From a virus: a stretch of 15,049 nt of DNA. Below the pieces are notes generated by a model that was not told the DNA's origin, searched no databases, and saw only the letters and a list, made by a program, of their open reading frames with translations. Below are positions 11,434 through 14,311 of the stretch, piece after piece (position 1 is the first letter of the stretch; the number at the start of each line of letters is the position of its first letter). A program made the position numbers and the translations under genes. The stretch lies in the UHGV virus genome UHGV-0082254; one strand, written 5' to 3'.

Positions 11434-11943
11434 ATGGGGCACAATAACACTAAGGGAAACCGTAAATTTATTAAGGGCCGCTATACTGCCAACGCGGCCA
11501 AAGGCGAACGACTGGTATCTTCTGAATTCCAGCTCACTTTTGCAGGCCATGAAGATATCAGCGTACTGGTTCGCACGTCGCAAATTCCTGAAATGACCCG
11601 CGAGGATGTGGAGGACTATGGTCCGAATGGTGTGAAGTTCAACCAGCACGGTCCAATTCGAAACTCTGGGGAAATCCAGGTCCAGTGCGTGGAGACTATC
11701 GAAGGCGATATTCTTCAGTTCATTAAAGATCGCATTGCGGCGAAGGACTATGTTGATATCACGATGGCTGCGACCCCTGAATCCAAATCTTCCGGGGTTA
11801 ACGCTGTGACAAAAGCTGCTACAACAATTGAAATGTTGGACTGCAAAATCTACAGTGATGCAATCGACTTTAGTACCGAAGATGTGACTGCCGCTGTGCG
11901 CCCGTCACTTCGTATCGTCTACAACTGGATTGAGTGGGATTAA
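11434..11943 (+). CDS. tail tube-like protein (T4 gp19-like pattern)
   Basis: 169 aa, SD AAAGGA. Pattern FQLTF ... GVKF ... GEIQVQCVET ... ends ...YNWIEWD, resembling gp19-family tube proteins that end in an aromatic-acidic motif. Confidence 0.5.
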   Translation: MGHNNTKGNRKFIKGRYTANAAKGERLVSSEFQLTFAGHEDISVLVRTSQIPEMTREDVEDYGPNGVKFNQHGPIRNSGEIQVQCVETIEGDILQFIKDRIAAKDYVDITMAATPESKSSGVNAVTKAATTIEMLDCKIYSDAIDFSTEDVTAAVRPSLRIVYNWIEWD

Positions 11944-11962: not shown

Positions 11963-11989
11963 AAAGCTCCTTCGGGAGCTTTTTTATTT
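11963..11989 (+). terminator. rho-independent terminator of the structural operon
   Basis: AAAGCTCC-TTCG-GGAGCTTT stem with UUCG tetraloop followed by TTTTTATTT. Confidence 0.8.
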
Positions 11990-12059
11990 GGAGAGGAAAG
12001 GGTGCATTGAGGATACCTGACACACGAAGAGTGGCGGGGATCTCTCCCCGCCAGGTCTC

Positions 12060-12215
12060 TTACCTTTCAGATTCGTAGGCTGTGAAGACAGTGACCTCCG
12101 TCTGGCCGGTTCGGATTCGTACCTCGCAGAGGTCTTTTCTCGTTACCAGTGCCGTCACTATGACGGTTAAACAGATGACGATCAGAGCGATTAACATCGC
12201 TTTTTGCTGCTTCAT
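12060..12215 (-). CDS. hok: Hok/Gef-family type I toxin
   Basis: 51-aa minus-strand ORF MKQQKAMLIALIVICLTVIVTALVTRKDLCEVRIRTGQTEVTVFTAYESER with the Hok family signature; SD AAGGAG 9 nt upstream; GGCGGGGA-gaga-TCCCCGCC 3' stem-loop on the mRNA strand at 12022-12041. Confidence 0.85.
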   Translation of the reverse strand: MKQQKAMLIALIVICLTVIVTALVTRKDLCEVRIRTGQTEVTVFTAYESER

Positions 12216-12273
12216 AGCCTGCTTCTCCTTGACCTTTTGGTCGGTAAGAGGCTAATCTACGTATGCTAAGCAT
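12067..12273 (-). CDS. mok: mok-like overlapping reading frame (modulator of hok translation)
   Basis: 68-codon frame starting 58 nt upstream of hok in a different frame and ending 7 nt from the hok stop, the arrangement seen in hok/mok/sok loci. Confidence 0.55.
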   Translation of the reverse strand: MLSIRRLASYRPKGQGEAGYEAAKSDVNRSDRHLFNRHSDGTGNEKRPLRGTNPNRPDGGHCLHSLRI

Positions 12274-12549
12274 AGATATGGCCTCAGATTAATGTTAAGC
12301 GTCTTGCAGGACGCGTAATGTTATCTGGGGCTTTCTTCTATCTGCTTTTCGGGTAATGCCTGAAGCAGATAGCCTCAAGCACCCGCAGCGATTGTATCAA
12401 TGTCTGGCTTTTTTTCTATAGAAATCACCTGGAAGGGTGAATACCCACATCAGAAGAAACGTTGCAGCAAACATGATCCCTAATGGCCAGACCGCGCCAA
12501 AGAAAATCCATACTGAAAACGCCAGGTGACTCCAGATTAGAGCAATCTA

Positions 12550-13395
12550 TCACCCTCTGAATCCCGCCGGTATACCCCATTGTTCGTTATCTTTATTTTT
12601 GGCTAAAACCGCATTAAGAGCTTCGTTTACCGTCATGCAATGCGGTAGGTTATCGAAGTTTGATATCCCGCCAATATCAGGCGAACGCTTGTTCTTCAGG
12701 TAAGCATATTTCCGCGCAGCCGCCTCTACTTTCTGCTTGAACTCATGTTTTTGAGCGCGTTTTTGGGATAACCGCAGATTGTCAGCCTTTGCTTTTGCCT
12801 CAGCGATCCATGAAGTCAATTTTTTGAGTCTGGACGTTCCGGCACCGCCGGAAACTGATCTTTTTGTTTTTTTAACTTGTGACTTCTTATTCTTTATTGC
12901 CACGTCATCCTGACAGGGGGAGGGGGTATCATTTTGACATGGGGGTGTGGATATAAAATTAAATAAAGCCAATGACTTAGCGATAACAGCTTTAACCTTG
13001 GTTGCCGCTGAAGAGATCTTTAATTTGCTTTCAGTCAGCGCATTTTTGGCTTGTTGTGCGAAGGCCAAAAAGGATGGTGTAAACCGGTACAGGTTAGCGC
13101 GACGTTCACGGTGATCGCCGATAACAATCTCTACAGACAGGATTCCTTTGTTTACAGCTTCACGGAATGCACGAACGACGGTTGATTGGCTATAACCAGT
13201 TTCTGCCGCGATCAGGCGGTGAGGCTTGTGAATGAAGTATTCACTGGTTGTTGCCGCGAGATTTGCACATTGCGACAGGATATGCCCGGCGCTACGGGAT
13301 AGACCGGAGTGTGTTACAAAGCAGGCCAATTCATAGCCAGAAAAAGTAAAATCGCTCATCGTTATACAGCTCAGGAAAGTGACTTTAGCCAGCAT
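12550..13395 (-). CDS. repL: lytic replication protein RepL-like
   Basis: 281 aa, directly downstream of the KilA-N gene in the same orientation, under a C1-operator-like site: the P1 kilA-repL arrangement. No convincing SD at either the first ATG or the internal ATG at 13359. Confidence 0.6.
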   Translation of the reverse strand: MLAKVTFLSCITMSDFTFSGYELACFVTHSGLSRSAGHILSQCANLAATTSEYFIHKPHRLIAAETGYSQSTVVRAFREAVNKGILSVEIVIGDHRERRANLYRFTPSFLAFAQQAKNALTESKLKISSAATKVKAVIAKSLALFNFISTPPCQNDTPSPCQDDVAIKNKKSQVKKTKRSVSGGAGTSRLKKLTSWIAEAKAKADNLRLSQKRAQKHEFKQKVEAAARKYAYLKNKRSPDIGGISNFDNLPHCMTVNEALNAVLAKNKDNEQWGIPAGFRG

Positions 13396-14294: not shown

Positions 14295-14311
14295 AAATTT
14301 ATTAGAGCAAA
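14295..14311 (-). promoter_or_regulatory. C1 repressor operator-like 17-mer
   Basis: Minus-strand TTTGCTCTAATAAATTT matches the P1 C1 operator consensus ATTGCTCTAATAAATTT at 16 of 17 positions; about 70 bp upstream of kilA. Confidence 0.6.

Follow-up and report, generated by a model that had tools for sequence, protein, structure and literature searches.

The locus at 12000-12418 on the minus strand of the window (the whole 15,049-nt stretch of virus genome UHGV-0082254 that was analysed) is, as read from its sequence, a complete hok/mok/sok type I toxin-antitoxin module. We regard it as probable that the locus constitutes a complete and active cassette belonging to the hokW/hokD clade, that a P1-like phage-plasmid carries it as cargo, and that it acts in post-segregational killing. 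A preliminary description of this DNA had proposed a hok/mok/sok-type module at 12000-12300. The type was borne out by the agreement of the toxin family, the mok overlap, the leader family, the sok promoter and hairpin, and the tac/fbi pairing; the module was indeed located in that span, but its true extent reached to about 12418. Every element was found intact in the window, namely both promoters, tac, ucb, dcb, fbi, mok, hok and the Sok hairpin. The match was far beyond chance, as judged from the E value of the leader family RF01794 and from the z-scores of the predicted mRNA and Sok folds. The locus is nonetheless an ordinary one, belonging to a known family and a known clade, in an arrangement already annotated in public records.

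For these analyses, ORFs of at least 20 aa were listed across the window, and the region was also read directly. The locus was aligned with R1-type hok/sok, with hokW/sokW of 933W and with hok/mok of phage Rac, and the comparative set comprised 57 distinct sequences, that is, the window, 55 IMG/VR relatives (81-99% identity) and R1.

Toxin gene and overlapping mok frame

The hok gene (12060..12215, minus strand; MKQQKAMLIALIVICLTVIVTALVTRKDLCEVRIRTGQTEVTVFTAYESER), preceded by an AAGGAG Shine-Dalgarno sequence, encodes a toxin of 51 aa. The initial assignment of this protein to the Hok family was supported by a Pfam HOK_GEF (PF01848) score of 78.7 bits against a cut-off of 22 (E = 2.4e-22), with the match spanning profile positions 1-42 of 42, and by a match to phrog_251 'MokW-like host killing' (E = 4.9e-32). 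The protein scored below the cut-offs of two NCBIfam models, the subfamily model NF007279 for Hok family toxins (49.5 versus 73) and the HokA equivalog NF007290 (38.1 versus 89). Since Pfam, PHROGs and Rfam were all passed, these sub-threshold scores were not taken against membership in the Hok family. Moreover, as PGAP calls the identical protein HokD, this name presumably does not derive from NF007279 or NF007290.

The overlapping mok frame had likewise been anticipated, and the ORF list contained it as 68 codons at 12067..12273 on the minus strand, in a frame different from that of hok. Its start codon precedes the hok ATG by 58 nt, with a frame relation to hok like that of R1, and its end falls 7 nt before the hok stop. 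The mok AUG (12271-12273) is preceded, 9 nt upstream, by a GAGG Shine-Dalgarno sequence (12282-12285). The frame matched phrog_37205 (E = 8.6e-21) and could be aligned to the mok frames of R1 and of phage Rac, the latter annotated as such; its translational coupling to hok is a prediction.

The toxin reading frame was well conserved among relatives. Full-length Hok was encoded in all of the 80 best IMG/VR relatives, the column entropy of the hok coding region was 0.06 as compared with a locus mean of 0.19, and the changes within hok in the alignment were mostly synonymous.

Promoter, leader and predicted fold of the hok mRNA

A promoter scan placed the hok/mok mRNA promoter at 12391..12418 on the minus strand, with the −35 TAGAAA, a spacer of 16 nt and the −10 TACAAT, the latter being preceded by TG (extended −10). 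The −10 hexamer and the mRNA 5' end are 6 nt apart, the same arrangement as in R1 (TATGAT, 6 nt, GGCGC). Because the homology to lambdoid hok loci begins at 12396, that is, at the −10, the −35 of hok is contributed by the P1-like flanking DNA.

The full-length hok mRNA body of 385 nt (12000..12384, minus strand) is predicted to begin with tac and to finish with fbi; its 5' end is set by the start of the Rfam match at 12384. This match, to RF01794 'sok', extended from 12384 to 12210 on the minus strand over the full model (1-157) with a score of 114.9 bits against a gathering score of 59 (E = 4.7e-26), and was the single above-threshold Rfam match when the whole window was scanned. In calibration, the score of the window was comparable to the 113.5 bits of the validated hokW/sokW of 933W/Sp5, as against 88.9 bits for R1. 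The last positions of the RF01794 model are the hok AUG, so the model has the orientation of the hok mRNA leader; the match therefore denotes the leader itself, to which Sok is complementary. Alignment to known Hok/Gef proteins and to hok mRNA leader elements, which had been named as a check of the module, thereby gave scores above the cut-off for both Pfam HOK_GEF and RF01794.

The 385-nt mRNA was predicted to fold with a minimum free energy (MFE) of −156.5 kcal/mol, versus −104.7 ± 5.0 for shuffled sequences (z = −10.45). In the MFE structure, the tac element GGGUGCUUGAGG at the mRNA 5' end (12373..12384, minus strand) pairs with the fbi element CCUCAAUGCACCC (12000..12012, minus strand), which also forms the 3' border of the mobile cassette; this tac-fbi lock comprises 12 bp and one bulged U (mRNA nt 1-12 with 12000-12012). 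Across the 57 sequences, 99.4% of the alignment cells of the helix were paired, with 0 compensatory pairs, and inside the hokW/hokD clade covariation gave it no support because both elements are nearly invariant there. Covariation support came from the comparison with R1 only, in which GGCGCUUGAGG faces CUGAAGCGCC and the pairing is kept.

The ucb box UAGCCUCUUACC (12243..12255, minus strand), invariant from R1 to the window, is complementary to tac and pairs in the predicted fold with the dcb box GGUAAGAG at the hok stop codon (12057..12064, minus strand). For the ucb-dcb helix (12250-12243 with 12064-12057), 89.5% of cells were paired with 0 compensatory pairs (n = 57), and for the helix predicted to sequester the Shine-Dalgarno sequence and start of hok, 99.7% were paired with 3 compensatory pairs (n = 57). 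A GC-rich 3' stem-loop had been noticed earlier, and it was recovered in the MFE structure after the hok stop at 12032..12053 on the minus strand (GGCGGGGAG-AGAU-CCCCGCC), where 5 of its 9 pairs showed compensatory changes and 92% of cells were paired.

The energy of the isolated tac-ucb duplex was calculated as −17.1 kcal/mol. The penalty for enforcing the tac-ucb pairing was 14.7 kcal/mol with the mRNA at full length, and 6.3-6.7 kcal/mol in 3'-truncated forms. The same test on R1 gave 13.4 and 4.4 kcal/mol, respectively, the same trend as in the window, with a drop of about 8 kcal/mol. With this energy model, tac-ucb pairing was not the minimum-energy state of the truncated mRNA, either for the window or for R1.

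Beyond fbi, a terminator scan of the plus strand detected the hairpin terminator of the bplB operon (11963..11982), which is part of the P1 backbone and is conserved in reference P1. This hairpin probably also ends hok transcription arriving from the opposite side; read on the minus strand, it has a poor U-tract (UUU, then AAAA) and is weak as a hok terminator.

The predicted Sok antisense RNA

Position-for-position alignment with the annotated sokW of 933W predicted a Sok antisense RNA of 71 nt at 12265..12335 on the plus strand. A plus-strand antisense RNA had been expected from the outset, and this part was upheld by the alignment, but the span first assigned to it (12230-12310) was about 30 nt too far to the left. 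In its fold, the predicted Sok has a 5' tail of 15 unpaired nt, a long hairpin with interruptions and a 3' end rich in U (−29.1 kcal/mol, z = −4.78), and the RNA spans both the Shine-Dalgarno sequence and the AUG of mok (12282-12285 and 12271-12273). The palindrome TATGCTAAGCATA noted earlier at 12262-12274, across the mok ATG, was confirmed in the sequence.

Direct reading and homology located the sok promoter at 12229..12258 on the plus strand, composed of the −35 TTGACC (12229-12234), an 18-nt spacer and the −10 TAATCT (12253-12258). The TTGACC element, pointed out before as a possible −35, is thus present, and marks the start of the Sok promoter, not of Sok. A generic sigma-70 scan missed this promoter because its −10 agrees with the consensus at 3 of 6 positions, and it was accepted on its homology to the promoters of R1 and sokW, with which it aligns (TTGCGC, 17 nt, TATCCT in R1; TTGCCT, 17 nt, TAACCT in 933W). 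The column entropy of its elements was low (0.135 and 0.185). In the experimental work on sokW, the primers of the promoter-less construct reveal that the aligned −10 was the one mutated, and sokW RNA was detected by Northern blot and was antitoxic (PMC8621323). The most variable part of the clade, with 18 versions among 56 sequences, is the 22-nt segment 12259-12280, which contains the Sok 5' tail and the mok start.

Location of the cassette in the P1-like phage-plasmid

The window represents a P1-like (Punavirus, IncY) phage-plasmid, whose flanks on both sides of the locus were 97-99% identical to P1, P7 and relatives, and in which the backbone synteny (repA-parAB ... sheath-gp21-pmgG-bplB / repL-kilA) is kept. 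The replicon is a low-copy plasmid prophage, with repA/parAB in the same window. As had been described, hok is convergent with bplB (11434..11943, plus strand) and is co-oriented with, and downstream of, repL (12550..13395, minus strand).

The suggestion that P1 carries other genes at this position, made previously without alignment, proved right when the two were aligned: reference P1 has pmgF, rlfB and rlfA there. The view of the module as accessory cargo was confirmed by the limits of homology, since P1 homology ends at about 11985 and resumes at about 12536, with pmgF-rlfB-rlfA between these points in P1 instead. The left end falls directly after the terminator T-run, and the right resumption lies inside the C1 operator Orlf, of which an 11-bp core is kept at 12536-12546 and which is a hybrid operator here. 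The pmgF-rlfB-rlfA segment of reference P1 (rapA/rapB in P7) occupies the same slot, from the bplB terminator to Orlf beside repL, whereas its content is unrelated to that of the window in both sequence and genes, and measures 1.86 kb in P1 versus 0.55 kb in the window. Other cargo found in the slot included rapA/rapB in P7, a Lom-like gene in SJ46 and a 172-aa hypothetical protein in 673R5; rlfA of P1 is a DUF3800 gene.

The homology to lambdoid hok loci ended exactly at 12396 and 12000 in 49 of the 80 IMG/VR loci, and these sharp limits indicate that the mobile unit extends from the hok −10 to fbi. A small ORF upstream of hok was considered as part of the cassette and rejected, as it is absent beside the lambdoid hok copies; it is also present in P1-like phages with other cargo. 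The window carries a 143-bp deletion located 94 bp upstream of the hok −35, which leaves the module untouched; among the 30 PLSDB matches listed for the query spanning the cassette junction, 2 were in a single piece. An 801-bp stretch over the locus was 100% identical to the Escherichia marmotae IncY plasmid NZ_CP099352.1, which is a different element, as it carries IS1 copies where repL of the window is intact.

Prevalence and annotation

With a junction-spanning query (coverage at least 80%), the hok/sok arrangement was found in 222 PLSDB plasmids at about 99% identity, the copies being annotated as 'hokD: type I toxin-antitoxin system toxin HokD', as compared with 99 PLSDB plasmids having the P1-type slot arrangement. 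Accordingly, among sequenced P1-like plasmids the bplB-repL slot is occupied most often by hok/sok, and not by pmgF-rlfAB. The bplB-hok junction was present in 202 of 5426 complete E. coli genomes, and related hok DNA in 4296 of the 5426, at up to 7 places per genome. Six phage records share the arrangement, one of which is annotated MokW, and the exact Hok protein, named HokD in NCBI and UniRef, occurs on at least 1000 contigs. In the literature searched, hok/sok in P1-like elements received only passing mentions, with no dedicated study found, and no relevant paper treating rlfA and hok together was found. Since the family is a textbook one and the locus already bears the hokD annotation in hundreds of public P1-like plasmids, its value as a discovery is small.

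Comparison with known hok/sok systems

The closest relative characterized by experiment is hokW/mokW/sokW of the Stx2 phages 933W and Sp5 (Sakai), which displayed 88% DNA identity to the window over exactly 12000-12396. Like the window, 933W has a 51-aa toxin and a 71-nt antisense RNA of the same position, hairpin and promoter layout; its tac and fbi are as in the window save one bulged base, and the Rfam scores are equal. The two differ at 6 of the 17 nt that form the recognition tail at the start of Sok, and in the sok promoter spacer, which is 18 nt in the window versus 17 in 933W. In addition, a 1-nt deletion in 933W brings mokW in frame with hokW, which is annotated as an N-terminally extended Hok, whereas mok of the window is out of frame, like that of R1. 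The replicons are also distinct, being an integrated lambdoid prophage in 933W/Sp5 versus a plasmid prophage in the window. The hokW-sokW pair has been proven by experiment to be a toxin-antitoxin system, with both toxicity and antitoxin activity established, the latter being partly dependent on RNase III and Hfq (PMC8621323).

The hok/mok of phage Rac showed 91% DNA identity to the window and a like mok frame. E. coli hokD (relF) lends its name to the window gene through PGAP. The K-12 hokD/relF locus is not known to have working mok/sok elements upstream, whereas the window copy has all of them, and the C-terminal residues of the window Hok presumably differ from those of K-12 HokD.

The archetype hok/mok/sok (parB) of R1 shares with the window the gene layout, the mok/hok frame relation and the Shine-Dalgarno spacing, as well as the GC hairpin past the stop codon and the placement of Sok over the mok translation start. 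The ucb box is invariant between them, and ucb pairs with dcb in both; tac and fbi differ in sequence but still pair with each other. The proteins, in contrast, are much more diverged; HokW and R1 Hok are 44% identical (PMC8621323). The Sok hairpin of the window further differs from the Rfam consensus by a 16-nt palindromic extension. As compared with R1, the fbi strand of the window has a 1-nt bulge, and there is no dedicated terminator past fbi, with the bplB hairpin in its place.

Proposed function

We took the module to be active by the canonical mechanism, since its parts are intact and strongly conserved and hokW-sokW is a proven type I system. In the proposed mechanism, the weak promoter at 12418-12391 would yield a stable 385-nt hok mRNA, as inferred from the sequence. 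The tac-fbi pairing, indicated by the predicted fold and its conservation, would keep this mRNA untranslatable and closed to Sok, an effect transferred from R1. Slow 3' trimming would remove fbi and allow refolding, again by analogy with R1, so that mok and, via mok, hok would become translatable. The short-lived 71-nt Sok, for which complementarity, promoter and hairpin were all found here, would pair over the mok ribosome-binding site and start, and the resulting Sok-mRNA duplex would be destroyed by RNase III, in line with the dependence on RNase III and Hfq known for sokW. Upon loss of the plasmid prophage, Sok would decay first, and Hok would then be made, insert in the inner membrane and kill the cell. 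The net effect would be post-segregational stabilisation, on top of that afforded by par and phd/doc.

Post-segregational killing on a low-copy plasmid prophage is most likely the main consequence of the module; a low-copy plasmid is the setting in which stabilisation by R1 hok/sok is established. Both post-segregational killing and phage exclusion, the two roles predicted in the preliminary description, are plausible. The type II system phd/doc was also present in 4 of 5 distinct hok-bearing P1-like phage genomes, and the occupancy of the slot by hok/sok together with phd/doc suggests two addiction systems, one of type I and one of type II. The retention of phd/doc beside hok/sok in these P1-like relatives suggests that the killing function would be redundant.

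The same module might instead act mainly in the lytic phase, in that Sok would be lost on induction and early Hok would damage the inner membrane, advance lysis and raise phage release. As the main role we judge this unlikely; as an alternative or additional function, assistance to lysis is a live alternative, and would be compatible with post-segregational killing. P1 possesses its own timing system of holin, antiholin and endolysin, which argues against a lytic role, while the supply of addiction by phd/doc and the retention of the 11-bp Orlf core at 12536-12546 count in its favor. Furthermore, hok is co-oriented with the C1-repressed kilA-repL operon, 335 nt downstream of it, and only a weak terminator-like hairpin of 5 bp (12440-12425) separates repL from the hok promoter; from this position, read-through on induction could supply further hok RNA and disturb the convergent sok promoter, although such read-through from repL into hok is speculation. 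Among close phage-borne relatives, moreover, the sole one studied functionally is hokW/sokW, which shares 88% identity with the module of the window, and there assistance to lysis was the role found: sokW RNA is lost upon treatment with mitomycin C, HokW precedes endolysin by about 1 h, the module speeds growth arrest after induction, and deletion of hokW-sokW halves Sp5 phage release (PMC8621323). The effect in Sp5 is nevertheless modest, being two-fold.

Phage exclusion and loss of function are both less likely than post-segregational killing or assistance to lysis. For a module acting mainly in abortive infection, a lytic phage would shut down host transcription, Sok would decay, and Hok would kill the cell before the invader matures. 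That the slot is a cargo position with varied accessory genes, such as that for the Lom-like protein in SJ46 and rlfA (DUF3800) in P1, is consistent with such a role, and R1 hok/sok reportedly excludes T4, in work attributed to Pecota and Wood (1996), the effect being partial; as the main role, we hold phage exclusion to be very unlikely. Least probable is an inactive relic, carried along with expression or toxicity lost like several E. coli K-12 hok loci, for although many chromosomal hok copies are said to be inactivated (a finding ascribed to Pedersen and Gerdes, 1999), some lambdoid relatives are degraded by loss of the Sok hairpin segment (L067, L030, L069) or of the mok ATG (L035), and the window has a 143-bp deletion just upstream, that deletion lies 94 bp before the −35 and outside the module, all elements are intact, the functional hokW locus has an equal Rfam score, and conservation is about 99% over hundreds of plasmids with mostly synonymous changes in hok.

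Implications

Of modest value are the prevalence of hok/sok in the slot, the presence of addiction systems of both types in these elements, and the delimitation of a mobile unit with sharp borders, from the hok −10 to fbi. Two linked ideas reach further, namely that the cassette is wired to the lysis-lysogeny switch and that the segment 12259-12280 is a specificity determinant of Sok; taken jointly, they are rather doubtful at present. Induction could trigger Hok as a lysis accelerator, instead of or besides its part as an addiction toxin, and the variable segment may keep the plasmid Sok orthogonal to the 1-7 related prophage hok loci of most E. coli genomes. If it is true that this hypervariable Sok-tail segment governs cross-talk, it would help to explain how many hok/sok modules coexist per cell.

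Occupancy and boundaries of the bplB-repL slot

The interval between the bplB terminator and repL (window 11986-12535) is a cargo hot spot of P1-like elements. In comparisons referring to the loci L003, L087, and L088, this slot, filled by the hok/mok/sok cassette in the window, was found to be occupied by pmgF-rlfB-rlfA in P1, rapA/rapB in P7, a Lom-like gene in SJ46, a gene for a 172-aa hypothetical protein in 673R5, and an IS605-family element in RCS47. Among plasmid records of PLSDB, the hok/sok form of the slot (222 records) outnumbered the form of reference P1 (99 records).

On the repL side, the junction between P1 backbone and cargo was shown to fall inside the C1 operator Orlf (12530-12546, - strand), which reads ATTGCTCTAATTATAAC in P1 and ATTGCTCTAATCTGGAG in the window. 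The putative operator of the window retains the 11-bp core of the P1 operator, with its distal 6 bp replaced. A second core-like site, TTTGCTCTAAT, was located upstream of kilA at 14301-14311 and presumably corresponds to Op53.

At 12512/12513, the window lacks 143 bp that are present in most relatives (e.g., MH422554, locus L001), and the ends of this deletion share the microhomology ACT. An 81-aa, two-helix membrane ORF of phrog_3772, a family of unknown function, is located between repL and the hok promoter. Through the deletion it has lost its start and its first half, and remnants of it persist at 12397-12474 and 12513-12549; the 3' end of the ORF overlaps both the -35 and -10 elements of hok. 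The ORF was confined to P1-like phages, including those carrying other cargo, such as 673R5 (90% identity) and SJ46 (44% identity).

One plasmid (L086, NZ_CP099352.1, 10143-29717) shows 100% identity to the window over the hok locus. At the position of the window's intact repL-kilA, however, it carries ISKpn26, two copies of IS1, and a tellurite-resistance (ter) cluster, and therefore closely related backbones differ by large insertions directly beside the cassette.

Variation of the locus within the hokW/hokD clade

The Rfam model RF01794 matched the window at 12210-12384 on the - strand, which encodes the leader of the hok mRNA, with the match ending at the hok AUG. Though named "sok antitoxin," the model does not match the Sok-encoding strand, and its strand calls therefore need to be inverted in order to locate the antitoxin.

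In the window, mok is out of frame with hok, as it is in R1, and Rac and the remaining P1-like copies share this arrangement. Most lambdoid copies carry a 1-nt deletion (GG-CAAGG) that brings mok into the hok frame (933W, L002, 1563-1775, compared with window 12067-12273), and "MokW" has therefore been annotated as an N-terminally extended HokW. Three lambdoid contigs from IMG/VR (L067, L030, and L069) lack approximately 20 nt of the Sok hairpin-forming segment (columns 95-115 of alignment A5), and a further copy, L035, has lost the mok ATG to ATA; these four are possibly decayed or differently regulated hok copies.

The stretch varying most in the whole clade was 12259-12280, comprising the mok start and the target of the Sok 5' tail. 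Its mean column entropy of 0.74 exceeded the values for the locus (0.19) and for the hok coding region (0.06). The stretch occurred in 18 versions among 56 sequences, while the sok promoter and the Sok hairpin flanking it on either side were conserved. The P1-like copies have a version of their own, in which 6 of the first 17 nt differ from sokW of phage 933W. Where several copies reside in one cell, this segment may be what determines Sok/hok specificity.
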